A stretch of 64,000 nt of DNA, taken from a virus. Lineage: Duplodnaviria; Heunggongvirae; Uroviricota; Caudoviricetes. Shown here in pieces: positions 2,461 to 50,988 of the stretch. Position 1 is the stretch's first letter. Every line of letters starts with the position of its first letter. The DNA lies in IMG/VR virus record IMGVR_UViG_3300050821_006962, positions 27,133 to 91,132 of that record; one strand, given 5' to 3'. The notes beneath the pieces are model-generated. The model saw only the letters and a program-made list of their open reading frames with translations, was not told the DNA's origin and searched no databases. Both the position numbers and the translations under genes were made by a program.

Positions 2461-2483
2461 AAACCCCCTGAATGAGGGGGTTT
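2461..2483 (-). terminator. rho-independent terminator closing the tRNA operon
   Basis: Minus-strand RNA AAACCCCCU-CAUUC-AGGGGGUUU (9 bp stem) followed by UGUAUUUUAC; sits between the last tRNA and the RBS of the next CDS. Confidence 0.7.
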
Positions 2484-2498
2484 CGTTACAATGAATAT

Positions 2499-2573
2499 TG
2501 GTTGCGGCGGGTGGACTCGAACCACCATGAACGCTTTCAGAGAGCGCCATCCTGCCAATTGAATGACATCGCA
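2499..2573 (-). tRNA. tRNA-Gln(CUG)
   Basis: T-arm GGTGG-TTCGAGT-CCACC, anticodon loop CTCTGAA, U1-A72, encoded CCA; one A.C in the acceptor stem. Confidence 0.6.
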
Positions 2574-2672
2574 ACAGAAATAAATGTCGTCCCCACTGGG
2601 GCGATGGGGTCCCTTTTCCTTGGAGGGTCGCTACGCGTTTGCTTTCTCCAAGTACCAGACCGACGACAAGAT

Positions 2673-2748
2673 TGGTTGGGTAAGAAGGATTCGAACCTTC
2701 ACCTGAGTGATTCAAAGTCACCCGTTCTACCAGTTAAACTATCGCCCA
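2673..2748 (-). tRNA. tRNA-Gln(UUG)
   Basis: D arm GTTT-AACTGGTAG-AAC, anticodon loop CTTTGAA, T-arm GAAGG-TTCGAAT-CCTTC, CCA encoded. Confidence 0.6.
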
Positions 2749-2756
2749 ACAGAAAA

Positions 2757-2836
2757 TGGAAGCCTCGAACACGACGCAACGCGTATGACCTTTCGGTTAA
2801 ATGCCGAATGCTCTTATCGCTCTGAGCTACCGAGGC
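2757..2836 (-). tRNA. tRNA-like gene, possible Lys(UUU) pseudogene
   Basis: Classic GCCTCGG-TA-GCTC D-arm start and a perfect acceptor stem, but T-loop TTGCGTC, A33 and a 3' UUCCA; probably degenerate. Confidence 0.35.
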
Positions 2837-2845
2837 ACAGAAAAT

Positions 2846-2919
2846 TGGTCCCAAGTCGTGGAGTCGAACCACGCCTACCAGTGTTTCAAACTGGGGTGCT
2901 ACCCTCACACTCACAGGGG
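2846..2919 (-). tRNA. tRNA-Phe(GAA)
   Basis: Anticodon stem CCAGT/ACTGG with loop TTGAAAC; T-arm CGTGG-TTCGACT-CCACG; CCA. Confidence 0.55.
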
Positions 2920-2920
2920 A

Positions 2921-3005
2921 TGGAGGAAGAGAACAGAATCGAACTGTCGTCCTTTCAGACGGTCGGGTGTTCGAAACCCGTTGCGAGCCATTCGCACTGT
3001 CTTCC
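2921..3005 (-). tRNA. tRNA-Ser(CGA)
   Basis: Type II; anticodon loop TTCGAAC; long variable arm ACCGTCTGAAAGGACG; CCA. Confidence 0.65.
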
Positions 3006-3010
3006 GTAAA

Positions 3011-3099
3011 TGGCGGACTGGTAGACGAATCGAACGCCCCCGTATCTCTACGAGCCTCCGGGTTCAAACCGGATTGCACACCGTTGCGCGGTACCATCC
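3011..3099 (-). tRNA. tRNA-Ser(UGA)
   Basis: Type II; anticodon stem TCCGG/CCGGA with loop TTTGAAC; long variable arm. Confidence 0.6.
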
Positions 3100-3106
3100 A
3101 TAAACT

Positions 3107-3194
3107 TGGCGGATGATGTGAGATTCGAACTCACTCGGGCTTTCACCCGCTGGTTTAGCAAACCAGTACGACACTCCGGCTTCGCCGACCATCC
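3107..3194 (-). tRNA. tRNA-Ser(GCU)
   Basis: Type II; anticodon loop TTGCTAA; T-arm GTGAG-TTCGAAT-CTCAC; acceptor GGATGGT/ATCATCC. Confidence 0.65.
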
Positions 3195-3200
3195 GTAAAC

Positions 3201-3617
3201 TTAAACTCCTAGCATCTTGCTGAGCTGCGCGACGCGCGACTTGGCTCTTTCCAAATCCCCGCTCGCTGCTTTGAATCCGTGATTCGGCTGAAACCCGTTC
3301 AGCCACTTGCACATCAGCTTGCCCCACAGCTTGCCTTCTTGCTGCGCGCGCCAGCTGTGCGTTGAAATCGTTTCGTCCTGCTGGCCTCGAAGAATCGTAA
3401 CATTGAACCAGATATCGAACGCGACCAGCGCTCGATGAGGCCAACCTTCTTTAGATGCCGTCAACTCTTGCGCCGCGACCTGCTGTGCCCCGGCCCACGG
3501 CACATACAGCCCGCGATATTTGTTAATTACACCAAATATGGTGGATACCGCAATCAAGCCGAGAACCGCACCGCTGAAAATTTCGCCAGTCAGCAACAGC
3601 TTATGAAGTGCGTCCAT
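3201..3617 (-). CDS. small membrane protein (N-terminal TM helix)
   Basis: 138 aa ORF inside the tRNA array; AAGAGG RBS 5 nt upstream of the ATG at 3617. Confidence 0.5.
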   Translation of the reverse strand: MDALHKLLLTGEIFSGAVLGLIAVSTIFGVINKYRGLYVPWAGAQQVAAQELTASKEGWPHRALVAFDIWFNVTILRGQQDETISTHSWRAQQEGKLWGKLMCKWLNGFQPNHGFKAASGDLERAKSRVAQLSKMLGV

Positions 3618-3633
3618 CGGAGCCTCTTAAATT

Positions 3634-3706
3634 GGCAGGAAGCGTAGGAGTCGAACCCACTCTCTCCGGGTTGGAGCCGGATGTGCTACCGCAACACTTG
3701 CAACCT
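3634..3706 (-). tRNA. tRNA-Trp(CCA)
   Basis: Anticodon stem TCCGG/CCGGA with loop CTCCAAC; D stem GTGT/GCAC; CCA; two U.U in the acceptor stem. Confidence 0.55.
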
Positions 3707-3769
3707 GTAGAAAATCTGAGCTTCCTATTTCACCGCGTGGCTGGCCGTGTCACAGCCCTTTGGACTCAC

Positions 3770-3880
3770 GTTGAAATCACCCGCTCCCAGTGGGATTCGA
3801 ACTCACACGCGGACACGATGGACGAATGCTGTCTAGGTCAGCACGTACGGACTAAGCCGCCTTCGTATCTACCTCGTACT
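3770..3880 (-). pseudogene. degenerate tRNA-like element
   Basis: T-arm-like GTGAG-TTCGAAT-CCCAC and an anticodon-like hairpin TGCTG-ACCTAGA-CAGCA (would read CUA), but no matching 5' acceptor strand and no CCA. Confidence 0.25.
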
Positions 3881-3951
3881 AGATGCGCCTTGCCGTTCGG
3901 CGTCATGGTCCCTCGCGTTTTTCAGGCGCGAGAGAAAAGAATGGTGGATGA

Positions 3952-4030
3952 TGAGGGATTCGAACTCTCTATGGCCCAAGGGCCAACAGGGTTACAGCCT
4001 GCCGCGCCACTCCAACTGCGCCGCTCATCC
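3952..4030 (-). tRNA. tRNA-Tyr(GUA)
   Basis: Anticodon loop CTGTAAC; long variable arm TGGCCCTTGGGCCAT; CCA. Confidence 0.65.
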
Positions 4031-4035
4031 AAACT

Positions 4036-4109
4036 TGGAGCCTCGTCGAGGAATCGGACCCCGGCGTCCTCTTTACGAAAGAGGCGTCATACCACTAGAC
4101 CAACAAGGC
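4036..4109 (-). tRNA. tRNA-Thr(CGU)
   Basis: Anticodon stem CCTCT/AGAGG with loop TTCGTAA; T-loop TCCGATT; CCA. Confidence 0.6.
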
Positions 4110-4115
4110 AAAAAT

Positions 4116-4191
4116 TGGAGCACCGCATTCGATTCGAACGAATGTGACCGAGGTACAAGCTCGGTATACTGGACCGCTGTATGAGCAGTGC
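4116..4191 (-). tRNA. tRNA-Thr(UGU)
   Basis: D stem ATAC/GTAT; anticodon loop CTTGTAC; T-arm ATTCG-TTCGAAT-CGAAT. Confidence 0.6.
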
Positions 4192-4192
4192 A

Positions 4193-4266
4193 TGGAGCCG
4201 AAGGCAGGAATCGGACCTGCGCTTGTTCTTTACCAAAGAACTGTTCTACCACTATACTACATCGAC
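4193..4266 (-). tRNA. tRNA-Thr(GGU)
   Basis: Anticodon stem GTTCT/AGAAC with loop TTGGTAA; T-arm GCAGG-TCCGATT-CCTGC. Confidence 0.6.
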
Positions 4267-4275
4267 TCAGAAAAT

Positions 4276-4350
4276 TGGAGCGAAGTGCGGGAAGTCGAAC
4301 CCGCGCCTAGACGTTGGCAACGTCTCGTGCTACCATTATACCAACCTCGC
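4276..4350 (-). tRNA. tRNA-Gly(GCC)
   Basis: Anticodon stem AGACG/CGTCT with loop TTGCCAA; CCA. Confidence 0.6.
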
Positions 4351-4358
4351 CCTGAAAC

Positions 4359-4432
4359 TGGAGCGGCGTCACGGACTCGAACCGAGACGAAGAGTTTGGA
4401 AAACTCCAATGCTACCATTACATCAACACCGC
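4359..4432 (-). tRNA. tRNA-Gly(UCC)
   Basis: Anticodon stem GGAGT/ACTCT with loop TTTCCAA; D arm ATGT-AATGGTA-GCAT. Confidence 0.6.
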
Positions 4433-4440
4433 TCAAAACT

Positions 4441-4529
4441 TGGTTGCGCAGAAGGGATTCGAACCCTTGGTGTCCTTTCGGATTCCAGCTTATGAGACTG
4501 GCGACATCGGCCATCTAGTCGACCGCGCA
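4441..4529 (-). tRNA. tRNA-Met/Ile2(CAU) with a 16-nt variable arm
   Basis: Anticodon loop CTCATAA matches elongator Met; acceptor TGCGCGG/CTGCGCA; unusual 16-nt variable region AATCCGAAAGGACACC. Confidence 0.5.
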
Positions 4530-4538
4530 ACAGAAAAA

Positions 4539-4612
4539 TGGTTGACGAGGAGTGAATCGAACACTCTCTTATTCCTTATCAGAGAATCGTCCTGCCGTTA
4601 GACGACTCGTCA
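4539..4612 (-). tRNA. tRNA-Ile(GAU)
   Basis: Perfect acceptor TGACGAG/CTCGTCA; anticodon loop CTGATAA; T-arm GAGTG-TTCGATT-CACTC. Confidence 0.65.
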
Positions 4613-4621
4613 ACTGAAAAT

Positions 4622-4698
4622 TGGTGGACCATAAGGGACTCGAACCCTCATTATTCCTCGGTGCAAGCGAGGTGCCATCCCAATTAGGCGAACGGCCC
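4622..4698 (-). tRNA. tRNA-Ala(UGC)
   Basis: Anticodon stem CCTCG/CGAGG with loop CTTGCAC; the G3.U70 Ala identity pair is present. Confidence 0.65.
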
Positions 4699-4708
4699 AC
4701 AGTAAAAT

Positions 4709-4784
4709 TGGTACTCGCGGCGGGATTTCAACCCGCGTTCTCGCCTTGAAAGGGCGGCGTCCTAGAGCACTAGACGACATGAGC
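4709..4784 (-). tRNA. tRNA-Glu(UUC)
   Basis: Body closely resembles E. coli tRNA-Glu (TC-GTCTAG...CTAGGAC, GCCGCCCTTTCAAGGCG); T-loop TTGAAAT. Confidence 0.6.
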
Positions 4785-4854
4785 ACTGAAACTTCTTGCC
4801 GCCTCCTGTTATCCCGGCCCCTTTCGGACCCCGGGTTTCCTGAACGGCAAAACT

Positions 4855-4928
4855 TGGTAGCGATGGCGAGAATCGAACTCGCGCTACTTGGTTGAGAACC
4901 AAGCGACCTGCCACTAATCGACAACGCC
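4855..4928 (-). tRNA. tRNA-Glu(CUC) (tentative)
   Basis: Anticodon stem CTTGG/CCAAG with loop TTCTCAA; T-arm GCGAG-TTCGATT-CTCGC; CCA. Confidence 0.5.
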
Positions 4929-4930
4929 AT

Positions 4931-5005
4931 TGGTGCCTCGTGGTGGAATCGGACCACCGTCTCAAGTTTATAAGACTTGGGCCTTCGCCATTAGACGAAC
5001 GAGGA
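4931..5005 (-). tRNA. tRNA-Ile(UAU) (tentative)
   Basis: Anticodon stem CAAGT/ACTTG with loop CTTATAA; T-arm GGTGG-TCCGATT-CCACC. Confidence 0.5.
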
Positions 5006-5013
5006 ATAGAAAT

Positions 5014-5089
5014 TGGTACCCAATCAGAGAATCGAACTCTGCCAGCCTCTTTGTAGGAGAGGTTCATACGACCAGTTTGATAATCGGGT
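5014..5089 (-). tRNA. tRNA-Val(UAC)
   Basis: Anticodon stem CCTCT/AGAGG with loop CCTACAA; acceptor ACCCGAT/ATTGGGT. Confidence 0.55.
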
Positions 5090-5171
5090 AGAAAATTTGG
5101 TGACAGTATTGTGTACCGGGGGAATCACCGTGCCCGCCTCTTGCGTTTTTGCTATCGGCTGAGACTGCCGT

Positions 5172-5339
5172 TTATAAATTCGTTTTGTACCAACGCTGGC
5201 CCATCGAAGACCACTGATAAACAATCTTGCAATCTTCGCACTTCACGACAGTCTCGCGGTCGGGTTGAACTTTACCCTCGACATACTTTCCGCACTGACA
5301 CATCAGACCTACAGACCGTGATGTTTTGTGAAGGCTCAT
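5172..5339 (-). CDS. small Zn-ribbon protein (55 aa, CxC...CxxC)
   Basis: MSLHKTSRSVGLMCQCGKYVEG...KCEDCKIVYQW; shares CxCGK...YQW with the ORF at 6041-6181. Confidence 0.35.
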   Translation of the reverse strand: MSLHKTSRSVGLMCQCGKYVEGKVQPDRETVVKCEDCKIVYQWSSMGQRWYKTNL

Positions 5340-5344
5340 AAACT

Positions 5345-5420
5345 TGGTGCATCGCCGGGGACTTGAACCCCGACCTCAGCGCTTAAAAGGCGCGCCATCT
5401 GCCGCTCGATATCGCAATGC
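5345..5420 (-). tRNA. tRNA-Lys(UUU)
   Basis: Anticodon loop CTTTTAA; T-arm CGGGG-TTCAAGT-CCCCG; CCA. Confidence 0.6.
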
Positions 5421-5430
5421 ACTGAAAATT

Positions 5431-5506
5431 TGGTCGACCGCCTCGGACTTGAACCGAGACCGTGTTCCTTAAGAGGGAATCATTCTGCCACTCGAAATCG
5501 CAGTCG
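5431..5506 (-). tRNA. tRNA-Lys(CUU)
   Basis: Anticodon loop CTCTTAA; T-arm CTCGG-TTCAAGT-CCGAG; acceptor CGACTGC/GCGGTCG. Confidence 0.6.
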
Positions 5507-5514
5507 ACTGAATT

Positions 5515-5586
5515 TGGTTGCGCGATAGCCCGGGTTCTGTCTAGGACGAACATTCCTCTGAGCCAGCTACCCGACCTTCATCACGC
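5515..5586 (-). pseudogene. short tRNA-like element (no canonical T-loop)
   Basis: Good acceptor pairing GCGTGAT/ATCGCGC plus ACCA, but only 69 nt and no TTCGA loop. Confidence 0.25.
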
Positions 5587-5869
5587 TCAACAAGCGCTCC
5601 GGTCCTATTTGCTGTTGCATCCGTGTGGAGTGCCTTCGCTTGAATGACTCAGGTATCTACGCTAACATTTCTGCTGCTCTCGCTGAGTACGAAGCCTTAC
5701 CCGTCCGCTTACGCGGCCCGCAACTTCCACGGCACGATGTTGAGTTATGCCCGGAACTTCCTCCAGCGCTTGCGCGCCAGCGTTCGTCTACGCTACCAAA
5801 AAGTAGGCAGTCTTTCGTTGACGCCAGAACGATTCGGCATTTGTGTCTGAACTGTTTCGCCGACAAACT

Positions 5870-5944
5870 TGGAGAACCGGGTCAGAGTCAAACTGACCAA
5901 TAGCGGGTTTGCAATCCGCCGCCTAATCGATTGGCTTCCGATTC
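5870..5944 (-). tRNA. tRNA-Cys(GCA)
   Basis: Anticodon arm GCGGATTGCAAACCCGC, near-identical to the E. coli Cys arm; discriminator U; CCA. Confidence 0.65.
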
Positions 5945-5949
5945 AAACT

Positions 5950-6035
5950 TGGTGCGCGTCGAGGGAGTCGGACCCTCACACCCAAAGGGGTAGCGCGTTT
6001 TAAGTGCGCCGCGTATGCCATTCCGCCACACGCGC
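5950..6035 (-). tRNA. tRNA-Leu(UAA)
   Basis: Type II; anticodon loop CTTAAAA; T-arm GAGGG-TCCGACT-CCCTC; acceptor GCGCGTG/GACGCGC. Confidence 0.65.
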
Positions 6036-6040
6036 AAAGC

Positions 6041-6181
6041 TTACTTGATGACCTCTAGCCACTGATAGCGAGTTCCGCAAGAGCAAGACGCCCAAACTTT
6101 TCTCATGCGATAGCCTGAGATAAATTTCTTGATTCGTCTCTTTACTCGATTAAATTTTTTACCACAAACGCAGGTCATCAT
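6041..6181 (-). CDS. small Zn-ribbon protein (46 aa), paralog of 5172-5339
   Basis: MMTCVCGKKFNRVKRRIKKF...SCSCGTRYQW; internal start of the 97-aa ORF-track entry, whose longer version would overlap tRNAs. Confidence 0.4.
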   Translation of the reverse strand: MMTCVCGKKFNRVKRRIKKFISGYRMRKVWASCSCGTRYQWLEVIK

Positions 6182-6187
6182 AAAACT

Positions 6188-6271
6188 TGGTCGCCCACCA
6201 CGGAGTCGAACCGTGACGCCCGAAGGCACGGGGTTTTGAATCCCGCGCGTCTGCCAGTTCCGCCAGCAGGC
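6188..6271 (-). tRNA. tRNA-Leu(CAA)
   Basis: Type II; anticodon loop TTCAAAA; variable arm TGCCTTCGGGCGT; T-arm CACGG-TTCGACT-CCGTG. Confidence 0.65.
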
Positions 6272-6279
6272 GATAAAAC

Positions 6280-6355
6280 TTGGAGGGCCACCGGGGAGTC
6301 GAACCCCGCTCCTAGCGTTCGTAGCGCTATGCAATTTCCGATATACGAGCAGCCC
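6280..6355 (-). tRNA. tRNA-Arg(ACG)
   Basis: Anticodon stem TAGCG/CGCTA with loop CTACGAA; T-arm CGGGG-TTCGACT-CCCCG. Confidence 0.65.
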
Positions 6356-6445
6356 TCAGAAATCGGAATCGTGTTTGCTCTGAACCACAGAGATTACCGC
6401 GCCTTGCAGCCGAAGCTGGCGAAGGACTTGACGCGACACAAATAT

Positions 6446-6523
6446 TGGAACACTCGGAGAGATTCGAACTCTCTTTGGTACGGGTTAGAACGCCGTTGGG
6501 ATATCCAGTTTCCCGACGAGTGC
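6446..6523 (-). tRNA. tRNA-Arg(UCU)
   Basis: D arm GGGA-AACTGGATA-TCCC; anticodon TTCTAA; T-arm GAGAG-TTCGAAT-CTCTC. Confidence 0.6.
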
Positions 6524-6669
6524 TCAGAAATTTTCGGGGTGCTGACGTGCCCTTAGACCGGAACCTTTTACGCGGGTCCGCACGGAGTGTGTCGCGAATC
6601 ACTTACGCGCTGGCTTAGGCAAGAAGACAGTACTCGTCCGTTCTCTGGCTCACGGAAGCCTTTGCAAAT

Positions 6670-6783
6670 TTACAGCGCGATGATTCGCGCGATGATTGGA
6701 TACTTACGGCAAACCCACAGCAGCACAAAAGGCGCTGCGGATGTGAACGAGACCGCAATCAGATACTTCTCGAAGAAGGTCAT
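6670..6783 (-). CDS. 37-aa hydrophobic membrane peptide
   Basis: GGGAGG RBS 5 nt upstream of the ATG at 6783; MTFFEKYLIAVSFTSAAPFVLLWVCRKYPIIARIIAL. Confidence 0.4.
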   Translation of the reverse strand: MTFFEKYLIAVSFTSAAPFVLLWVCRKYPIIARIIAL

Positions 6784-6844
6784 GAGAACCTCCCTTCTTA
6801 AATTTGGGCCGAGATTACAGCTCGACCCGCTCTACATGCAAACT

Positions 6845-6929
6845 TGGTACCCCGCACAGGAGTCGAACCTGCACGACCGAAGTCACTGGTTCCTAAGACC
6901 AGCGCGTCTCCCAATTCCGCCAACAGGGC
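6845..6929 (-). tRNA. tRNA-Leu(UAG)
   Basis: Type II; anticodon stem CTGGT/ACCAG with loop CTTAGGA; variable arm TGACTTCGGTCGT. Confidence 0.6.
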
Positions 6930-6930
6930 A

Positions 6931-7020
6931 CTGAAAATCTGCCGAGCGTTCTACCATTAAACTACGTGCGAGCAAGCTCACACGGCGGGACTCGAACCCG
7001 CACCTCTCAGCTCATCTGCC
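6931..7020 (-). other. tRNA 3' half followed by a tRNA 5' half (permuted order) joined by a perfect acceptor hairpin
   Basis: Minus RNA reads ...CUGAG-AGGU-GCGGG-UUCGAGU-CCCGC-CGUGUGA-G-CUUGC-UCGCACG-UA-GUUU-AAUGGUAG-AAC-G-CUCGG-CAGAUUUUCAG. The acceptor strands CGUGUGA/UCGCACG pair 7/7; GGCAGAU is duplicated in both halves. Confidence 0.4.
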
Positions 7021-7030
7021 ACCCGAACAA

Positions 7031-7360
7031 ATTGGTGGACTTAATTTCCGGGCGGATTTTATCAGCGCGAGCCGCCGTCCCGCATAGGGCACCTTTAGTG
7101 CCGAGTCCTATTGCCCCAAACCAGCATGCGAGGCCCCGTCAGGGAGCTACCCCGATAGGTTGATGGACTCTGTCGCGACAACATCTCCGTGGTAGGCGTG
7201 CCTTGACGCCTCGTTCCCCTTCGCACTTTCGTGCTCCGGTGTCCGTTCGCTCCCTAGAGAGCCGCGACCTCGCGCGCCCGAAGGCTACAGCCCCGAAGGG
7301 CCTGCGCTGTCCGCGACCCTGCAAGGGTCCGTAGTGGATAACCGAACGGCTCCACAAAAT
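7031..7360 (-). ncRNA. 330-nt GC-rich structured non-coding segment ending ...GUCCACCA
   Basis: No credible ORF; at least 6 perfect hairpins (GGCAC-CTTTA-GTGCC, GACCCT-GCA-AGGGTC, GGCGT-GCCTT-GACGCC, CCCGAAGGG x2, palindrome TGTCGCGACA); sits inside the tRNA operon. Confidence 0.35.
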
Positions 7361-7439
7361 TGGTCGAGAAAGCTGGATTCGAACCAGCGTGCCCTCGCTT
7401 CCGAAGCGAGTGAGATAAGCCAAACTCCTCTATTTCTCG
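7361..7439 (-). tRNA. tRNA-Pro(CGG)
   Basis: Perfect acceptor CGAGAAA/TTTCTCG; anticodon stem CTCGC/GCGAG with loop TTCGGAA; T-arm GCTGG-TTCGAAT-CCAGC. Confidence 0.6.
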
Positions 7440-7449
7440 ACAGTAAAAT

Positions 7450-7537
7450 TGGCTGGGGCAACAGGACTCGAACCTGTAATGAGCGCTAGCTCTGCCTGAT
7501 TAACAGTCAGGTGCTGTACCAATTGAGCCACACCCCA
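7450..7537 (-). tRNA. tRNA-Asn(GUU) with a 17-nt variable arm
   Basis: Anticodon arm CCTGA-CTGTTAA-TCAGG is identical to the E. coli Asn loop; extra hairpin CAGAGCTAGCGCTCATT in the variable region; discriminator G. Confidence 0.5.
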
Positions 7538-7546
7538 GTAGAAAAA

Positions 7547-7621
7547 TGGCGGAGATAACGGGAATCGAACCCGTACTTCATCCGTGACAGGGACGTGTCG
7601 TTACCAACTGACCCTATCTCC
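7547..7621 (-). tRNA. tRNA-Asp(GUC)
   Basis: Perfect acceptor GGAGATA/TATCTCC; anticodon loop CTGTCAC; T-arm ACGGG-TTCGATT-CCCGT. Confidence 0.65.
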
Positions 7622-7630
7622 GCTGAAAAA

Positions 7631-7719
7631 TGGTCGAGATAGAAGGATTCGAACCTCCGGGGCGTTGCCGCACTGGTTTCCAAAACCAGACCGCTACCAA
7701 GCTACGGACCTATACCTCG
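7631..7719 (-). tRNA. tRNA-Pro(UGG) with an expanded D region and a 14-nt variable arm
   Basis: Aligns with E. coli Pro(UGG) (AGCTTGGTAGCG, CTGGT-TTTGGAA-ACCAG, GGAGG-TTCGAAT-CCTTC) but carries insertions. Confidence 0.45.
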
Positions 7720-7833
7720 ACAGAAAATGTATACATCGTAGCAAACGTTTCGAACCGGACGCTTTCGCCACAACGGCAGGCCACGCAATGTAGCCTATGG
7801 TGTTTCACCCTTACGGATGACTTTGACATAGAC

Positions 7834-8031
7834 TCAGCCCACGCTTCTCGCCGAATTAGGCTCGCGAACCTGTAGCGTCTTTTCGGCAATCAGCAAGTAA
7901 ACTTTCGCGCTTTCCTCGACGTCGCCACTTAAGGCTAGGTGGACTATCTGCACGGTACTGACCCGTCGCTGGGCCAAGAAAATTATTGGTTCATTCATAA
8001 GTCGGAAAGCCAGTCGCAGCGGATGCGCCAT
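7834..8031 (-). CDS. hypothetical protein (65 aa)
   Basis: ORF track only; weak RBS. Confidence 0.25.
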   Translation of the reverse strand: MAHPLRLAFRLMNEPIIFLAQRRVSTVQIVHLALSGDVEESAKVYLLIAEKTLQVREPNSARSVG

Positions 8032-8053
8032 ACATTACCGTCCCAGTGCCCCG

Positions 8054-8125
8054 GGAGCTGGTGGGAGTCGAACCCACTCTGCCGCTTTGGTGGACTGTGA
8101 ACCAGCCGACCGCCCCGTGTTCATC
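8054..8125 (-). other. tRNA-like 3' element resembling a tmRNA 3' end (no full cloverleaf)
   Basis: GUGGG-UUCGACU-CCCAC-CAGCUCC, compared with E. coli ssrA GCGGG-UUCAACU-CCCGC-CAGCUCC-ACCA. Only about 40 nt upstream is pairable and no CCA is encoded. Confidence 0.3.
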
Positions 8126-8157
8126 ATGCGGTGATGAGCCGCCCACGGTTTGAACTC

Positions 8158-8349
8158 TTAAACCTTTCTGTGCTCGATTGGCGTGAGGTCTAACGTCGTC
8201 TCCGCGCCGCACTCGCAAACATATCTGTTGCCGGGTCGTCTCCGAACCGGGTCCCCGCATTCGGGGCATGAAATCAGCCGGGGTGGTTGCCCGACTCCGT
8301 TCTTCGCCGGAATCCATATTTCCGTTTCGAACGTTTCCATTGAACCCAT
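8158..8349 (-). CDS. Zn-ribbon protein (CPECG...CECG)
   Basis: ...LISCPECGDPVRRRPGNRYVCECGAETTLD; ATG at 8349 or 8340 lies inside or just after the -10 box of promoter 8348-8376, so it is possibly leaderless. Confidence 0.5.
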   Translation of the reverse strand: MGSMETFETEIWIPAKNGVGQPPRLISCPECGDPVRRRPGNRYVCECGAETTLDLTPIEHRKV

Positions 8350-8376
8350 CCTACCACACTTTCGAAACCTTGTCAA
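8348..8376 (-). promoter_or_regulatory. sigma70-like promoter (TTGACA-17-TAGGAT)
   Basis: Minus strand TTGACA (8371-8376), 17-nt spacer, TAGGAT (8348-8353). Confidence 0.5.
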
Positions 8377-8464
8377 GCTTTATTTTCGGGGCAGCTTTGG
8401 CTCGTGCTAGCTGCCCCTTGGAGGTGCAACTAATGCAAGGTGATGCTACTGCGATTCGAGAACC

Positions 8465-8493
8465 AGTCTAGCACAGTTCTCGAAACTTGTCAA
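8465..8493 (-). promoter_or_regulatory. sigma70-like promoter (TTGACA-17-TAGACT)
   Basis: Same architecture; the flanking sequence TTTCGAgAACtTGTCAAG is repeated from 8348-8376. Confidence 0.45.
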
Positions 8494-8508
8494 GTACTAT
8501 TTTAAACT

Positions 8509-8585
8509 TGGGGTGAAGTACGGGGGTCGAACCCGTGCCGAGGGATTCACAGTCCCCCGTGCTACCTTTACACTAACGACACCAC
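8509..8585 (-). tRNA. tRNA-His(GUG)
   Basis: Anticodon loop CTGTGAA; extra 5' G (G-1) opposite discriminator C73 as expected for His; T-arm ACGGG-TTCGACC-CCCGT. Confidence 0.6.
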
Positions 8586-8680
8586 TGAAAATTTGGCGGT
8601 AATGGTCGCCACCCTCCGAGGCCGGAGATACATCTCCGTTTAAGTAGGGCTAATCGCTACCCTTCCTCGACCGTGGGTGA

Positions 8681-8709
8681 ATCCTACCACACTCGGCGGC
8701 GGATGTCAA
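8681..8709 (-). promoter_or_regulatory. promoter of the tRNA operon (TTGACA-17-TAGGAT)
   Basis: Minus strand TTGACA (8704-8709), 17 nt, TAGGAT (8681-8686); TSS about 8673; the leader contains hairpin CGGAGAUGUAUCUCCG before tRNA-His. Confidence 0.55.
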
Positions 8710-44593: not shown

Positions 44594-45303
44594 GTCAATT
44601 ACTGATTGCTGTTAAAAGTTGCAGAGCTGACCTCGACCGAGGCTGTCACAACGTGATTCGCGCCACGTGGGGCCAGCAGTTCCGTGGGCGCGCCATCGTG
44701 CGGTTCTTCGTGGGTCACACCGCCGACAAATACTTTATGGCGCATCCGGGCGCAAAGGCTCGCACGCTACAAAGCGACGAGGTTGAGATAGACGCGGCGG
44801 ACGACTACGACTCGCTGCCGCACAAGACTCGCGCCATCTGTCACTGGGCGACCGGGAAGAACATCGAGAATATCTTTCTCTGCGACAACGACACGTACGT
44901 TTACCCGCAAAAGTTGTTGACGTGCGGATATAACCGCTACGATTACGCGGGCAAGATTAGCAAGCCGCTCGGGGAGACGTTTGCTTATGATGCGGTCGAC
45001 CGGAGAGGCGTGACCACCCACATGGAGAACTGCTACCCGTGGGCCAGCGGCGGATACGGCTACTTCCTTTCTCGCGATGCCGCATTTTTGATTGCCGATT
45101 CGTATCCGAAGGGCTGGGCGGAAGACCTCTGGGTCGGCCAAGTTCTCGGAAAGGAAATTGCACAAGGCAGCATGCACGGCCTCGACCTGCCAGCGGGCAG
45201 CTATTCGCGGCACTTCCCGGCGCACCAGTACGGACAAGGCTACAGCCCAGAGCTAAAGTGGATGGAGCTGATGCACGCGGCCAATCAGGTGGTGAACGGA
45301 TGA
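44590..45303 (+). CDS. DxD-motif glycosyltransferase (GT31 or Fringe-like)
   Basis: LCDNDTYV. Confidence 0.45.
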   Translation: MSQLLIAVKSCRADLDRGCHNVIRATWGQQFRGRAIVRFFVGHTADKYFMAHPGAKARTLQSDEVEIDAADDYDSLPHKTRAICHWATGKNIENIFLCDNDTYVYPQKLLTCGYNRYDYAGKISKPLGETFAYDAVDRRGVTTHMENCYPWASGGYGYFLSRDAAFLIADSYPKGWAEDLWVGQVLGKEIAQGSMHGLDLPAGSYSRHFPAHQYGQGYSPELKWMELMHAANQVVNG

Positions 45304-45995
45304 AGACCGCGCTACTAGTTATCGCAACGGGCGAGAAGTATCACCAGTATGTGAACCCGCTGCTCGAATCGGCCCGTGAGTTCTTCGTGGAGCACGATGC
45401 GTGGGTGTGGACCGACAGCCTCGCGGCAGCAAGCCAAATCGACGCGAAGTTCGTGCTGACGAAAGAGCCACTCGGGTATCCTAACGAGACTCTTTATAGA
45501 TATCACACTATTTTGCAGCAGCGCTCGCTTCTAGCAAAATATGACTACCTGTTCTATCTCGATGTGGACATGCGGCTGGTCGCGCCTGTGGGCAAGGAAA
45601 TTTTTTCTAACAATATCACGGCCTGCCTTCACCCCGGCTACGTAAACGAGGTCGGCAGTCCGGAGCGTAGACCGGAATCGATGGCCGCAATTTCGTACAA
45701 CGCAAAGAACAAATATTTTTGCGGCGGCTTCAACGGTGGATTTTCCGGCGCGTTCCTCGGAATGGCAGCGGAGCTGGCGTGGTGCATCGACAAAGATACG
45801 GAGAAAGGCGTCTTGGCTGTCTGGCACGACGAAAGCCATCTGAATCGGTACCTGTACGACCATCCACCTTCAAAGATTCTGGACCCGAGTTACTGCTACC
45901 CGGAGGGCGCGGGCGACCACTATCTGAACAAGTGGCGCGCGGCGGGCATCAACCCAACGCCGAAGATTCTGGCGCTTACGAAGGCAGGGCGATGA
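45300..45995 (+). CDS. DxD-motif glycosyltransferase
   Basis: YLDVDMRLV; ATGA-coupled. Confidence 0.45.
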   Translation: MKTALLVIATGEKYHQYVNPLLESAREFFVEHDAWVWTDSLAAASQIDAKFVLTKEPLGYPNETLYRYHTILQQRSLLAKYDYLFYLDVDMRLVAPVGKEIFSNNITACLHPGYVNEVGSPERRPESMAAISYNAKNKYFCGGFNGGFSGAFLGMAAELAWCIDKDTEKGVLAVWHDESHLNRYLYDHPPSKILDPSYCYPEGAGDHYLNKWRAAGINPTPKILALTKAGR

Positions 45996-46657
45996 AGGTT
46001 AGTATCGTAATTCCGTGCTACAATATGCGCGTGTACGTCGGCGAGGCGATTCAGTCCGCGCTGGCGCAGTCGTACCGGGACTTCGAGGTCGTGGTGGTGG
46101 ATGATGGGTCTACCGACGGCTCTCTCGGCGAAATCGAGAACTATCCGGTTAAGATTGTCAACAAGCAGAACGGCGGGCTGGCATCTGCCCGCAACGCAGG
46201 CATCGGGTTTTCCACGGGTGAGCTGATTCTGCCACTGGACGCCGACGACAAGATTGACCCGCACTATCTGATGAAGACGGTGCCGCTGATGTCAAGCGCG
46301 GTCGGTGTGGTCTCGACAGACATGCAGTACTTCGGAACACACACAGACCGACTGCGCCCGACGCACACGACGTTGCAGCAGGTTGTTCAGTACAACGGAA
46401 TGCCTGTATGCTCTCTGATTCGCAAGAAGGCGATTCTGGAAGCAGGCGGCTACAAAAGCATCATGAACGAGGGCTGCGAGGACTGGGAGCTGTGGGTCTC
46501 GATATTGAAGCGCGGCTGGAAGGTCGCGGTCGTGAACGAGCCGCTGTTCTTCTACCGTCGCAAGCCCGTCTCGATGGTCTCGACGATGAACCGAGGAAGG
46601 ATGATTGAAGTGATGAAGACCTTGCACCCAGAACTGAATTGGAGCGGAGTGAGATGA
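45992..46657 (+). CDS. glycosyltransferase family 2
   Basis: IVIPCYN...DDGSTD...DADD. Confidence 0.6.
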   Translation: MKVSIVIPCYNMRVYVGEAIQSALAQSYRDFEVVVVDDGSTDGSLGEIENYPVKIVNKQNGGLASARNAGIGFSTGELILPLDADDKIDPHYLMKTVPLMSSAVGVVSTDMQYFGTHTDRLRPTHTTLQQVVQYNGMPVCSLIRKKAILEAGGYKSIMNEGCEDWELWVSILKRGWKVAVVNEPLFFYRRKPVSMVSTMNRGRMIEVMKTLHPELNWSGVR

Positions 46658-47427
46658 TTACCATACAACTGCTAGGCGGACACGGCAACCAGCTATTCCA
46701 GTGGGCCTTCGGAATGGCGCAGGCGAAGCGGCTCGGCGTGAAGCTACAGCTGAACACGAGCAAGCTCGGCGGCAACCGTCCGTACACGTTGAACCAGTGG
46801 ACGGCGGAGAAGTCGGACGTGCCTTATCAGGTTGAGCCGACCGTGCGGGAGCAAGGCATGCCGTACAACCCGGCGCTCGCGAACAGCATCAAGAACGGCG
46901 ACGTGATTCAAGGCTACTGGCAGACCGAGAAATATTTCCAAGGCATCGAGCAAGAGCTTCTGGCCCTCCGTCCCCGAGTCACCAGCAATGCACTGTTGGA
47001 GAACATCTTCAACACTATGCAGCCTGTCGCGGTTCATGTTCGCCGAGGCGACTACACGAGAGAGCCGCACGCAAGCTTCCACGGTAATCTTGGACTGGAT
47101 TATTACAACAACGCTTTCAATTACATCATCGAGCGAATTCCGCGTCCGACGTTTTTTATATTCAGCGACGACCCGCAGTGGTGTCGGGAGCACTTTACTA
47201 GCGAGGGTCGCCGTTCGGTTGTAATTGTTGAGCCAACCGAAGAGGCATCAGATATCCAAGCGATGTCTCTCTGCAAGCACAACATCATCGCCAACTCGTC
47301 GTTCAGCTGGTGGGGCGCGTACCTCGGAAAGAGAGGGGACCGCGTGGTTGTGGCACCGAAGAATTGGTTTCAATCGAAGGACGAAGACTCTCGGGACATC
47401 GTCCCGGAAAGATGGGTGAGGATATGA
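46654..47427 (+). CDS. alpha-1,2-fucosyltransferase-like (GT11)
   Basis: GGHGNQLFQWAFG, compared with GT11 motif I GGLGNQMFQYA. Confidence 0.5.
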   Translation: MITIQLLGGHGNQLFQWAFGMAQAKRLGVKLQLNTSKLGGNRPYTLNQWTAEKSDVPYQVEPTVREQGMPYNPALANSIKNGDVIQGYWQTEKYFQGIEQELLALRPRVTSNALLENIFNTMQPVAVHVRRGDYTREPHASFHGNLGLDYYNNAFNYIIERIPRPTFFIFSDDPQWCREHFTSEGRRSVVIVEPTEEASDIQAMSLCKHNIIANSSFSWWGAYLGKRGDRVVVAPKNWFQSKDEDSRDIVPERWVRI

Positions 47428-48377
47428 TTGATTTGAACACGTGCAACTTTGTTGTGTACGGCTTCCGCAACAGCTACAACACGTTCGGCCACATTCAGGA
47501 AGCGTGGTACCGCGCGCTGCAATACAAGTTCCCCGACCGGAAGGTCAGCTGGGTCGACGAGATGAACGTGGAAGACGCGGACTTCTCAAACGCTGTGGTG
47601 ATGACCGTCAACGTGGCGAACTTGGTGAAGATGCCGAAGCGCAAGGACGCCTTTTACATCATCCACAATCTGGACGAGACCACCAAGGCAGCCTTCGGCG
47701 GCGACCTGCGTCAGTACTCAGTGATGAACTACGGCATGTACACGAGCACGACCAAGCTGGGACAGGATGACATCGAGGTCGGTTTCGAGACCTATCTGTC
47801 TCTGCAAGGTCACGAGGCGTACACCACCACGATACTCCGCTGGGGCACCGACCTGTTCCCTCACGAGATTGAGGCCAACAAGCCGACCCAAGTTTTTGAC
47901 GAGAGCAAGACAGACGTTAATTTCGTAGGCACGATTTATCACAACGTCCACGACCCGTTCGCGAAGGCCTGCCGGGAGAACGGAATCAAGTTCAACGCTA
48001 TCGGCGGCTTCACGGGCACCGCGCCCGTATCCATCGCGGAGAACGTCCGGCTGGTGCGCGAGTCCTACATGGCTCCTGCTATAGGCGACGTTTACCACGC
48101 GAAGGTCGGTTACATCCCGTGCCGCACCTACAAGAACATTTCGTACGGTCGTTTGCCGCTGACCAACAATAGATACGCGCAGGAGTTCTTCAAAGGTCGG
48201 CTCATCTTCAACGAGGATACATATCAGCTCTTTTACGACGCGAAGAAGGCTTTGCGCGAATACAAGCTCGCGGACCTTCACCAGCTGATGGACGAGGTCG
48301 CGGCCAACCACACGTATCTCACCAAAGTGGACAGTCTGCTGAAAGCGGTCAAACTGACGCAGGAGGCACGCGGATGA
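47424..48377 (+). CDS. hypothetical protein, possible GT-B glycosyltransferase
   Basis: Position in the cluster; weak pattern similarity to T4 beta-glucosyltransferase (DVNFVGTIY...FNAIGGF). Confidence 0.3.
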   Translation: MIDLNTCNFVVYGFRNSYNTFGHIQEAWYRALQYKFPDRKVSWVDEMNVEDADFSNAVVMTVNVANLVKMPKRKDAFYIIHNLDETTKAAFGGDLRQYSVMNYGMYTSTTKLGQDDIEVGFETYLSLQGHEAYTTTILRWGTDLFPHEIEANKPTQVFDESKTDVNFVGTIYHNVHDPFAKACRENGIKFNAIGGFTGTAPVSIAENVRLVRESYMAPAIGDVYHAKVGYIPCRTYKNISYGRLPLTNNRYAQEFFKGRLIFNEDTYQLFYDAKKALREYKLADLHQLMDEVAANHTYLTKVDSLLKAVKLTQEARG

Positions 48378-49213
48378 AGATTCTAGTCCTCGGCTCCGGG
48401 GGTATGCTCGGGCACAAGATGCTCGAACGCTTAAAGCTTCATCATCCCTACGTAGAAGGGGTGTCGAGAAAGAATTTCAAAACCGCAACCAAGGCAAACT
48501 TTGATGCCACTGACAGTGGTAAAGTGATGCAAGTTTTCAACTACTATAAACCGGACGTGGTTGTGAACTGTCTCGGGGTCATCAAGCAAAGAACATCACA
48601 AGGTATGCAGAGCGTGAACGCGCTTCTCCCGCATTTTTTAAGCCGCCAATGTGAGGAGCGGGGCGCATACCTGATTCATTTCAGCAGCGACTGCGTGTTC
48701 TCCGGAAAGAAGGGGATGTACACGGAGAAGGATGCGCCGGACGCCGAAGACCTGTACGGTCTCACGAAAGCGGTGGGAGAAATTACTGATTCGAAGAACA
48801 CGCTGACGCTCCGCACATCAATCGTCGGGCGCGAGCGAGCGAATTATCTGGGTCTGCTCGAATGGTTCCTTCGACAAACGGGCGAAATTCAAGGTCATGA
48901 GAATGCCATCTTCTCAGGAGTCACAACCGAGTGGCTGTCAAGTCTAGTCGCGGAGCTGATATATTGGCCCAAGAGGCTTTCAGGATTGTACAATGTCGCG
49001 ACCGAGCCAGTTTCAAAGTTCGAGCTGCTTAAAATTTTCCAAAGGACTTATAATAAGCAGGGTGTTACTATCATCCCGGTTTCGGAACCGCGATGTGACC
49101 GAAGCCTAGACCCAACAAAGTTTAAACACGATACACTGATATCGATTCCGAGCATTGAGCACATGGTCGAAGGTCAGCGAAATTTGGACAAAGGGAGCGG
49201 ATATGCTATTTGA
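48374..49213 (+). CDS. dTDP-4-dehydrorhamnose reductase (RmlD)-like NAD(P) sugar reductase
   Basis: MKILVLGSGGMLG Rossmann N-terminus; RmlD-like length. Confidence 0.5.
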   Translation: MKILVLGSGGMLGHKMLERLKLHHPYVEGVSRKNFKTATKANFDATDSGKVMQVFNYYKPDVVVNCLGVIKQRTSQGMQSVNALLPHFLSRQCEERGAYLIHFSSDCVFSGKKGMYTEKDAPDAEDLYGLTKAVGEITDSKNTLTLRTSIVGRERANYLGLLEWFLRQTGEIQGHENAIFSGVTTEWLSSLVAELIYWPKRLSGLYNVATEPVSKFELLKIFQRTYNKQGVTIIPVSEPRCDRSLDPTKFKHDTLISIPSIEHMVEGQRNLDKGSGYAI

Positions 49214-50201: not shown

Positions 50202-50988
50202 AATATTCAGCTTTGGTTCCAATCGTCCGGACTTCATCGGTCTGCAACTGCGCTCGTTCCAGCGCCATCTGAAAGAGGACTTCGAGTTCGTAGTCTTCAA
50301 CAATGCGACCTACGACAACGGTGCGGGCGGAAACTACAACGGCCTCCACGAGCAGGCCAAGGCGCTCGGCATCCGGATGATTGATGTCGTGAAGGACCCC
50401 GGATTGGCGGAGCGCTGCCAGAAGATTGAGCTGAGCTGCCCGCTGTTTAATCCTCAAGGCTTGTATTCGAACGCCAACGTGGCGCACGCGTACGCGCTCT
50501 GCTGGGCGTGGGAGAACCACATCTCGAAAGAGCGCCAGCCGATTGCCATCTTCGACTCGGATGTCTTTCTGGTTGAGCCAGTGAGCCTGACCGAGATGAT
50601 GCTCCCTCACGTGATGCTCAACGTCCCGGACGGCAAGACTCACCAGCAAGACGGGCGCGTCTTCCGCTACATGTGGCCGACGTTCGTCGTGATGGATATG
50701 GCGCGGCTGCCGGACCCGGAAACCATGAACTGGTGGTGCGGCAGGGTGGAGAACACGCCCGTCGACGTGGGCGGGCAGACCTATCACTACTTCCAAGCGC
50801 ACCCGGACTTGGATGTTATTTCGGCTCGGAAGCTTCACCACACCGAGTTCAGCACCGATGAATTCTACTTGACAAAGGGCGACCAGTGTGCTACAGTACT
50901 ACACTACCGCTCCGGCAGCAACTGGGACCACCGCAGCCGAGAGTTCCACCAACAGAAAACCGAATGGCTGAAAGCGAGGATTGGATGA
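50194..50988 (+). CDS. hypothetical protein (possible glycosyltransferase, FDSDVF)
   Basis: ORF track. Confidence 0.35.
   Translation: MLKIFSFGSNRPDFIGLQLRSFQRHLKEDFEFVVFNNATYDNGAGGNYNGLHEQAKALGIRMIDVVKDPGLAERCQKIELSCPLFNPQGLYSNANVAHAYALCWAWENHISKERQPIAIFDSDVFLVEPVSLTEMMLPHVMLNVPDGKTHQQDGRVFRYMWPTFVVMDMARLPDPETMNWWCGRVENTPVDVGGQTYHYFQAHPDLDVISARKLHHTEFSTDEFYLTKGDQCATVLHYRSGSNWDHRSREFHQQKTEWLKARIG

Follow-up and report, generated by a model that had tools for sequence, protein, structure and literature searches.

A class A RNase P RNA of reduced architecture is encoded within the tRNA array of a phage and its viral relatives

Ribonuclease P (RNase P) RNA, or RPR, is a universal cellular ribozyme that serves as a marker for cellular genomes. 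Among bacterial RPRs, class A is separated from class B by a P15–P16–P17 arm with a GGU in L15 and by the P6–L17 pseudoknot. Archaeal RPRs of type A and type T are cellular RNAs that require four or five archaeal proteins; type A RPRs naturally lack P13, P14, and P18, and the type T RPR of Pyrobaculum lacks nearly the whole specificity domain (S-domain), reductions that are compatible with function. For viruses, a literature search of full texts, which left most subscription journals uncovered so that an earlier mention is possible, returned no phage-encoded RPR, and the only viral RNase P-like RNA that it returned was a camelpox transcript. This orthopoxvirus RNA has a loose similarity in secondary structure to RPR and did not cleave pre-tRNA in vitro (PMC3001073). 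In a report on megaphages, an Rfam screen found tRNAs and transfer-messenger RNA (tmRNA) only. Here, we analyzed a 64,000-nt stretch of DNA (referred to as the window) from the Caudoviricetes record IMGVR_UViG_3300050821_006962 of IMG/VR (positions 27,133 to 91,132), which carries a large tRNA array. One gap in this array, in which the initial annotation of the window had overlooked any gene, holds an RPR of bacterial class A (about 290 nt; 5510–5801, minus strand), i.e., a member of a familiar ribozyme family in a new genetic setting and with a reduced architecture.

The window RPR matches the bacterial class A family of Rfam (RF00010) with 102 bits (E 4.8e-31) over model positions 1–367, the gathering score of the family being 100. 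Helices P1–P12 and P15–P17 can be assigned, as can both pseudoknots (P4 and P6), and P13, P14, and P18 are absent. A family-specific motif spanning P8–P9–P10, GTGGAAGNTGCNNGNNNNGNAANNNNNCGGGTAA, matches 28 viral contigs in IMG/VR, all of which hold an RPR homologue; it is full length except at two or three loci, which are truncated or match the profile over its 3' two-thirds only. A profile search likewise found an RPR in each related array that covers the region. When the motif was searched against the genomes of 185,579 species of bacteria and archaea, a single match was obtained, on a contig with a phage-type array. This contig (CABMCB010000038.1, “uncultured archaeon isolate LFW-28”; labeled L057, such L-numbers denoting loci in relatives and other database contigs) is 36.6 kb long and has the phage-type RPR together with a 19-tRNA array that includes features of bacterial type; most probably, a phage contig was mis-binned here into an archaeal metagenome-assembled genome (MAG). 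At the DNA level, neither blastn of the RPR nor megablast of the array gave a match among 50,697 GenBank phage records. A search of IMG/VR with an exact 16-mer of the P4 strand of the window gave 14 loci, all of which were discarded as chance matches without an Rfam family.

To score covariation, the class A structure, including both pseudoknots, was written onto alignments of the RPR sequences and the pairs were counted, using as a control the same structure with partners slid by 1 to 3 columns. With eight sequences, 94.7% of the cells pair, 43 of 77 pairs show compensatory changes, and the covariation score is 0.523, versus about 0.07 for the slid control. With 25 distinct sequences, which have a mean column identity of 45%, pairing is found in 92.7% of the cells and compensatory change in 51 of 72 pairs; the score is 0.557 versus about 0.08 for the slid control, and none of 500 shuffles reaches it. 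In this larger set, P2, P8, P9, and P15 pair in 100% of the cells. The P4 helix of the catalytic core, with eight pairs of which five are compensatory, pairs in 99.5%, and P16 and P17 of the class A arm pair in 93% and 89%, respectively. P6, formed by L17 with J5/7, covaries in each lineage (CAACA/UGUUG, UAGACA/UGUCUA, UAUAC/GUAUA, and UAAGUA/UACUUA). The start of P4 in the window is unusual but compensated, its first three pairs being AGU/GCU versus AAG/CUU in Escherichia coli. The RPR is a conserved phage gene, present in at least 25 related viral contigs, whose fold is kept by compensatory changes.

Several sequence elements are invariant in the RPR family: the bulged U of P4, the GCAA of J5/15, the CGGGU of L15, the AGAnGnAUG of J18/2, and, in the 3' strand of P4, ACnnAA (ACAGAA, as shared with E. 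coli M1 RNA). As for the CR-I/CR-V sequences of the catalytic core, GAGGAA and ACnnAA are invariant or nearly so across the family. We take the bulged U of P4, the J5/15 adenosine, and the GGU of L15 to be the equivalents of U69, A248, and G292/G293/U294, respectively, in E. coli numbering; in E. coli, this GGU pairs with the 3' CCA of the tRNA. The S-domain is built differently. In place of P13, P14, and J11/12–J12/13, the family has 8–94 nt beyond P11 that form one hairpin, after which comes a conserved CAUUCRA, and the Rfam alignment of the window RPR deletes the consensus segments ACAGAAA and GUGAAA. The P18 site has 0 nt in the window, and inserts at this site occur only in L024, L028, L041, and L044. 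Lengths in the family range from 263 nt (the L031 form) to 352 nt. As judged from these sequences, the catalytic domain of the phage RPR is canonical and its specificity domain is reduced, because P13 and P14, the J11/12 consensus, and mostly P18 are missing while the core is kept.

The position of the RPR gene inside the arrays is fixed. The RPR and all tRNAs lie on the same strand in each contig examined. A tRNA starts 3–11 nt past the 3' strand of helix P1 in 12 of 23 contigs, the window being one of them with tRNA-Lys(CUU) at a distance of 6 nt, and in five contigs a tRNA ends 0–6 nt ahead of P1. The RPR is thus placed in the precursor like one more tRNA, so that an RNase P cut at the next tRNA would make the 3' end of the RPR. 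ARAGORN calls of tmRNA at L018 (5076–5373) and at L019 and L020 (123–420), with a predicted tag AADASGSNGAF followed by a stop, span the 3' part of the RPR and two Lys tRNAs and were rejected as artefacts; in the window itself, neither ARAGORN nor Rfam called a tmRNA.

RPRs with a canonical P4 strand also occur in putatively viral tRNA arrays. The strand GAGGAAAGTCCGGGC was found at 83 loci in IMG/VR, many of which have no nearby tRNAs, lie at contig ends, or resemble enterobacterial rnpB; such loci are probably host flanks. Dense tRNA arrays were found at 17 loci, and 13 of these hold a class A RPR scoring 108–300 bits within a same-strand array (L068, L071, L072, L080, L085, L092, L100, L111, L112, L115, L119, L132, and L137). 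Nine of the 13 come from contigs of 100–463 kb that are putatively viral. At many of the 13 loci, the RPR is 0–6 nt from tRNAs on one or both sides, and L112 has a mini form of 207 nt (118 bits). Among the RPR-containing arrays are one group with a GC content of about 0.55, in which CCA is encoded as in the window, and another with a GC content of 0.61–0.69, in which CCA mostly is not encoded. A strict co-adaptation of encoded CCA with the L15 GGU was dropped as an explanation on account of these putatively viral high-GC arrays, which combine a canonical RPR with tRNAs that mostly lack CCA. The canonical RPR match in the record of Microcystis phage MaAM05 (MW495066.1, 111–119 kb; L141) was also set aside; it lies among fabI, engB, mtgA, and glyS, in what looks like bacterial chromosome.

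The array around the window RPR comprises 33 tRNA genes at 2499–8582, all on the minus strand. ARAGORN accepted 29 of them, and four were added from Rfam and from relatives: Cys-GCA (Rfam tRNA model, 38.2 bits), Lys-CUU (27.2 bits, below threshold), and the class II tRNAs Ser-UGA and Ser-CGA, which were read by hand and for which Rfam gives only sub-threshold matches to its tRNA-Sec model (26.6 and 28.3 bits, respectively). The same four isoacceptors are called by ARAGORN in the arrays of relatives, in a similar gene order: a syntenic Cys gene is present, Ser-UGA stands beside Ser-GCU, and L017 has Ser-CGA at the same place. Many predictor-supported genes, closely spaced on a single strand of a phage genome, mark the locus as a polycistronic phage tRNA array. 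The initial annotation had read about 33 genes by hand, and its isotype list proved identical to ours; its placement of all genes on the minus strand agrees with ARAGORN and Rfam, and its statement that every gene encodes CCA holds for 33 of 33. Encoded CCA is also found in 460 of 464 tRNAs called in 19 related contigs. The spacing of 1–10 nt that had been given for the whole array applies within sub-clusters only, where intergenic distances are 1–11 nt; across the array, 13 gaps of 70–789 nt intervene.

In the direction of transcription, the array opens with tRNA-His(GUG) (8509–8582), which has an encoded G-1 and C73, and continues after a long gap with tRNA-Pro(UGG) (7631–7719), tRNA-Asp(GUC) (7547–7621), tRNA-Asn(GUU) (7450–7537), tRNA-Pro(CGG) (7361–7439), tRNA-Leu(UAG) (6845–6929), tRNA-Arg(UCU) (6446–6523), tRNA-Arg(ACG) (6281–6355), tRNA-Leu(CAA) (6188–6272), tRNA-Leu(UAA) (5950–6035), and tRNA-Cys(GCA) (5870–5944). 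Downstream of the RPR follow tRNA-Lys(CUU) (5431–5505), tRNA-Lys(UUU) (5345–5420), tRNA-Val(UAC) (5014–5089), tRNA-Ile(UAU) (4931–5005), tRNA-Glu(CUC) (4855–4928), tRNA-Glu(UUC) (4709–4784), tRNA-Ala(UGC) (4622–4698), tRNA-Ile(GAU) (4539–4612), a tRNA(CAU) (4441–4529) that is the sole CAU tRNA and could be Met or Ile2, tRNA-Gly(UCC) (4359–4432), tRNA-Gly(GCC) (4276–4350), tRNA-Thr(GGU) (4193–4266), tRNA-Thr(UGU) (4116–4191), tRNA-Thr(CGU) (4036–4109), and tRNA-Tyr(GUA) (3942–4030), which is of class II as in bacteria. The last genes are tRNA-Trp(CCA) (3633–3706), tRNA-Ser(GCU) (3107–3194), tRNA-Ser(UGA) (3011–3099), tRNA-Ser(CGA) (2921–3005), tRNA-Phe(GAA) (2846–2917), tRNA-Gln(UUG) (2673–2748), and tRNA-Gln(CUG) (2499–2573).

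No two of the 33 anticodons are the same, and together they serve all 20 amino acids, giving a set that is non-redundant and nearly complete. Under strict wobble rules, they read 50 of 61 sense codons, corresponding to 85.7% of the codon occurrences in 53 phage open reading frames (ORFs). If U34 is allowed to read whole four-codon boxes, 60 of 61 codons and 99.5% of the occurrences are covered, and CGG alone is unread. Because the set is non-redundant and reaches this coverage with 33 anticodons for all 20 amino acids, it supports full replacement of, or independence from, the host tRNAs over a simple compensation of codon bias. The independence in codon usage suggested in the initial annotation is in line with this, as far as it can be derived from the codons of the 53 phage ORFs.

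In bacteria, long variable arms are normally confined to Leu, Ser, and Tyr tRNAs (and Sec). Three further tRNAs of the array, tRNA(CAU) (89 nt), tRNA-Asn(GUU) (88 nt), and tRNA-Pro(UGG) (89 nt), have class II-like variable arms with stem–loops of 3–4 bp. The corresponding tRNAs are also long in relatives (L015, L018, L021, L026, L032, L048, L050, and L056), with 87–90 nt for Met/CAU, 86–88 nt for Asn, and 88–89 nt for Pro-UGG, and these relatives have additional long-arm tRNAs for Ile-UAU (89–95 nt) and Thr-UGU (83–85 nt).

A consensus scan recovered the promoter that had been proposed upstream of the array (promoter P1, TTGACA-17-TAGGAT, with a TG before the -10 hexamer; 8681–8709, minus strand; 10 of 12 matches). 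It is not the only one: promoter P2 (TTGACA-17-TAGACT; 8465–8493) and promoter P3 (TTGACA-17-TAGGAT; 8348–8376) follow on the same strand, giving three near-identical sigma-70-like promoters that start at 8709, 8493, and 8376. A 98-nt leader (8583–8680, minus strand) with hairpins and the 3' end GCCAAAUUUUC connects promoter P1 to tRNA-His and has no match among the relatives compared. The intrinsic terminator that had been placed at the 3' end of the array was likewise found (2479–2464, minus strand), as a hairpin CCCCCTCATTCAGGGGG followed by the T-run TTTTGTATTT, and the scan detected no strong internal minus-strand terminator in the array.

Between the tRNAs, the spacers are short, typically 8–10 nt, and unstructured, with the consensus CCA-AUUUUC(U/A)(G/A)U. 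Position +1 after CCA is occupied by A (79%), U or G follows at +2, and U fills +3 to +5 (79–93%). The leaders before the tRNAs are equally conserved, with C at -4, U or A at -3, a purine (G or A) at -2, and U at -1, where U accounts for 62% and G for just 2–7%. The same leader and trailer profile is shared by relatives (460 tRNAs, 19 contigs). The minus strand of the array has 12 copies of the exact string ATTTTC, i.e., 1.9 per kb versus 0.21 per kb elsewhere, a ninefold enrichment. The uniform AUUUUC trailer that had been ascribed to every gene is therefore a U-rich consensus with 12 exact copies; the proposal that the trailer is a processing signal remains reasonable if it is extended to a two-part spacer, consisting of a U-rich trailer and a C-W-R-U leader. 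The strongest indication on processing is one that the initial annotation had not noticed, namely the RPR carried by the array.

The gaps of the array hold five small ORFs, all on the minus strand. A 60-aa zinc ribbon protein (CPECG..CECG; 8158–8340) is conserved in L027 and L028, and a 138-aa protein with an N-terminal hydrophobic helix and no Pfam family (3201–3617) has tblastn matches in L015, L022/L023, L032, and L034. A hydrophobic 37-aa ORF (6670–6783) is preceded by a strong ribosome-binding site, AAGGGAGG. Two others, a basic 46-aa zinc ribbon with the sequence NRVKRRIKKF (6041–6181), which has no Pfam support, and a 55-aa zinc ribbon (5172–5339), are not conserved in the related loci compared. 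We take NRVKRRIKKF to be reminiscent of the RNR motif of RnpA, the bacterial RNase P protein. The initial annotation had noted neither these ORFs nor the conserved blocks and the YrlA-like module described below.

Also on the minus strand, at least six non-coding blocks, each bounded by the U-rich spacer motif, are kept in one to three relatives; no known RNA family could be assigned to them, and they may be small RNAs or mobile modules. The block at 7905–7997 is about 96% identical to L028, where it lies directly upstream of tRNA-Pro, and the block at 7720–7910, whose 3' end is the tRNA-Pro leader UUUUCUGU, is common to L017 and L021. A structured block with a covarying hairpin (7036–7183) lies within a 338-nt GC-rich spacer and is syntenic in L018 and L026. 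Between Tyr and Trp, a block that ends in a T-arm-like hairpin (3770–3907) shares about 95% identity with its equally placed counterpart in L018, and another at 3715–3768 is conserved in relatives. A structured spacer with the closing stem GUCGUC...GACGAC (2574–2672) is conserved in L015. A tmRNA or a group I intron was considered for the 338-nt spacer (7023–7360) and for the 440-nt spacer (7720–8160) and rejected for lack of support from Rfam and ARAGORN; the minimum free energy z-scores of -0.97 and +0.56 were uninformative.

Two spacers on this strand resemble tRNAs. Reading by hand, we found at 2749–2845 a degenerate tRNA-like element with a 7-bp acceptor stem, a D-arm, a UUU anticodon arm with A33, and a 3' UUCCA; it has no T-loop consensus and received no call from ARAGORN or Rfam. 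Possibly, it represents a tRNA-Lys that has decayed or is of an unconventional kind. The second, at 6930–7022, is a circularly permuted tRNA-like module, in which a T-arm is followed by a 7-bp acceptor-like stem with CUUG as its closing loop and by a D-arm, and it is flanked by the direct repeat GGCAGAU. It scores 32.7 bits against the YrlA family (RF02553), for which the gathering score is 69. An identity as YrlA was rejected; only the tRNA-like module aligns, and the terminal stem overlaps tRNA-Leu. Rfam found no such module in four relatives, and Pfam found no Rsr/TROVE gene in the window, although the window does encode RtcB (60397–61704), a companion of rsr/yrlA in Salmonella.

The array lies in a phage genome. 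Searches with PHROG and Pfam identified phage-type proteins in the window, namely an A1-like DNA transfer protein, a split family A DNA polymerase, a prim-pol, a UvrD helicase, endonuclease VII, a GH108 endolysin, and RtcB. The A1-like protein is about 45% identical to proteins of alphaproteobacterial and cyanobacterial siphophages, and proteins encoded beside the array, when used as queries, bring up IMG/VR contigs of 97–109 kb with the same array at the same place. These proteins and viral relatives bear out the phage origin assumed in the initial annotation, as opposed to a host genomic island. The RtcB RNA ligase that it had reported at 60397–61704 (plus strand) is genuine (PF01139, E 8.6e-106). 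The link to tRNA repair that it had drawn is a conjecture, because the gene is 52 kb away from the array, on the other strand, and in a different module. A cluster at about 45000–56200 (plus strand), with Polysacc_synt_2, RmlD-like, and epimerase domains, glycosyltransferases of families 11 and 6, and a C-methyltransferase, may serve the glycan modification of DNA or of a surface.

We consider it reasonably probable that the locus is a production unit for phage tRNAs, in which the RPR, together with the RnpA protein of the host, processes the 5' ends of the phage tRNA precursors. The genes, the motifs, the fold of the RPR, and its conservation in phages were described above as observed; the catalytic activity of the RPR, its protein partner, and the order of the cleavages are what we infer from sequence. 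The three tandem sigma-70-type promoters would drive long minus-strand transcripts that end at the one terminator (2464–8709) and that would carry the 33 CCA-encoding tRNAs, the small ORFs, several structured RNAs, and the RPR of about 290 nt. After folding and binding host RnpA, the phage RPR would cleave the phage precursors at the 5' end of each tRNA. The encoded CCA would be bound by base pairing to the invariant GGU of L15, and the -1 position, which is mostly U, would lie opposite the invariant adenosines of J5/15. In E. coli, A248 contacts N-1, and about 60% of tRNAs have U-1 (PMC6582537). A cut at the 5' end of tRNA-Lys(CUU), 6 nt downstream, would define the 3' end of the RPR itself. 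In E. coli, tRNAs that lie close together are reportedly separable by RNase P alone (PMC4176162). The U-rich trailers would subsequently be removed down to the CCA, through cuts of host RNase E directly past the CCA and/or by 3' exonucleases. A bolder version, which we hold to be speculative and rather unlikely, is that the locus is a self-contained tRNA factory, in which the RPR would free itself at the tRNA junctions and take over host RnpA, thereby starving the maturation of host tRNAs.

Several observations weigh against tRNA processing by the phage RPR with a host protein. The window RPR exceeds the RF00010 gathering score by just 2 bits, and among its relatives, L024 (111.8 bits) and L021 (101 bits) pass that score, while four others, at 91.6–98.7 bits, do not. 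The lack of P13, P14, and the J11/12 consensus may weaken recognition of the T-loop. Searching by tblastn with RnpA of E. coli, Bacillus subtilis, and Thermotoga maritima revealed no RnpA in the window, and Pfam found no Ribonuclease_P, Rpp/Pop, or TROVE family in 103 ORF translations (about 95 distinct ORFs of the window). Host RnpA is assumed as the partner, being the simplest inference, because the 64 kb revealed no gene for an RNase P protein. Phage RPRs are not always accompanied by encoded CCA. For RNase E, the sole basis is that CCA-A↓UUUU fits the preference of this enzyme for A/U-rich sites, RN↓WUU.

The absence of a detectable phage rnpA has another possible consequence: the RPR would compete for the host protein. 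It could then act as a decoy that captures host RnpA, starving the maturation of host tRNA, 4.5S RNA, and tmRNA, or it could redirect the holoenzyme. The conservation of the neighborhoods of P2–P4 and J18/2, which we presume to be the protein-binding regions, would suit such a role, and the reduced S-domain could shift substrate preference. For the RNase P-like RNA of camelpox, a function as a decoy was proposed at one time (PMC3001073). A pure decoy, however, needs neither an invariant core nor a CCA-binding GGU, P6, or P15–P17, all of which are kept by covariation, and the location of the RPR inside tRNA arrays, beside its candidate substrates, points to processing; we regard the takeover of host RnpA as unlikely. 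The phage RPR could also work with a phage protein that escaped recognition, or with no protein, in which case tRNA maturation would not rely on the host, e.g., where the host RNase P is divergent or consists of protein only. The remodeled S-domain would fit this, such changes being seen in lineages with changed protein partners, and so would the small zinc ribbon ORFs of the array, one of them very basic and carrying NRVKRRIKKF. Yet the 46-aa and 55-aa ORFs are not conserved in the related loci compared, the conserved 60-aa and 138-aa proteins have no RNA-binding signature, and Pfam detected no RNase P protein family in the window. Moreover, no conserved ORF was noticed beside the RPR in relatives, where no systematic check was made. 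Altogether, a host-independent enzyme seems quite improbable to us.

The near-threshold score and the truncated S-domain could alternatively mean that the RPR is a passenger, either a decaying fragment of host rnpB or an artefact of assembly or binning, and many canonical rnpB matches in IMG/VR do lie at contig ends without tRNAs, like host flanks. This is very hard to reconcile with 25 sequences that have 45% mean identity and still pair in 92.7% of the cells, with 51 of 72 pairs compensatory and both pseudoknots present, with the fixed, same-strand position within arrays, or with a signature motif that is missing from 185,578 of 185,579 cellular species genomes. We exclude it on the grounds of covariation, because pseudogenes do not covary, and assign it next to no probability. 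A different question is why the phage has so many tRNAs. The array could be no more than a supply of tRNAs for phage codons or an anti-defense set that replaces host tRNAs destroyed by anticodon nucleases, with RtcB serving for repair, in which case the spacer would be an RNase E site and the RPR incidental. The 33 non-redundant anticodons, with 99.5% of codon occurrences read under permissive wobble, and the presence of RtcB agree with this, and the odd long variable arms of several tRNAs could evade nucleases. Phage tRNA loci have reportedly been documented as anti-defense genes (PMC13096335). This explanation is compatible with processing by the RPR and host RnpA, since it concerns the reason for having the tRNAs, whereas processing concerns their production. 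As a replacement for that reading, it has little probability: RtcB is 52 kb off in another module, no anticodon nuclease target or defense system was identified, and selection on the RPR in at least 25 lineages is left unexplained.

If processing of phage precursors by the RPR and host RnpA is correct, an enzyme for tRNA 5' processing is added to the translation-related functions carried by phages, and if the tRNA factory is real, it would represent the first catalytic RNase P encoded by a virus, and a minimal class A ribozyme of natural origin without P13, P14, and P18. The approximately 25 natural variants (263–352 nt) speak to the question of which elements of the specificity domain are required, and such loci suggest compact, self-processing tRNA array cassettes for synthetic biology. 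There is also a warning for annotation: RPR in viral bins need not mean contamination, and one “archaeal” MAG contig is most likely this type of phage. Routine annotation misses the RPR family because most of its members score just under the Rfam gathering threshold.

The closest relative of the phage RPR is the bacterial class A RNA represented by E. coli M1 RNA (RF00010), with which it shares P1–P12, P15–P17, both pseudoknots, and the core motifs. Unlike M1 RNA (about 377 nt), it is encoded by a virus, lies in a tRNA array where it often abuts tRNAs, and has about 290 nt, with a single variable hairpin past P11 in place of P13 and P14 and with P18 mostly missing. The absence of P13, P14, and P18 is shared with archaeal type A RPRs; in contrast to these and to type T, the best-scoring model for the phage RPR is bacterial class A, and no Rpp-type proteins were found in the window. 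The camelpox RNase P-like RNA differs in that the phage RPR has a full class A core with covariation support. The module at 6930–7022 (minus strand) shares with YrlA a T-arm, a closed acceptor stem, and a D-arm, but a convincing terminal stem for Ro binding is lacking: the 3' strand in the alignment is the start of tRNA-Leu. The array itself is like those of T4, T5, mycobacteriophages, and huge phages in being a same-strand polycistronic tRNA cluster with short spacers in a large, lytic-looking genome, and it differs from them in its complete and non-redundant set, the encoded CCA of all its tRNAs, its conserved spacer consensus, and the putative processing ribozyme encoded along with its tRNAs.

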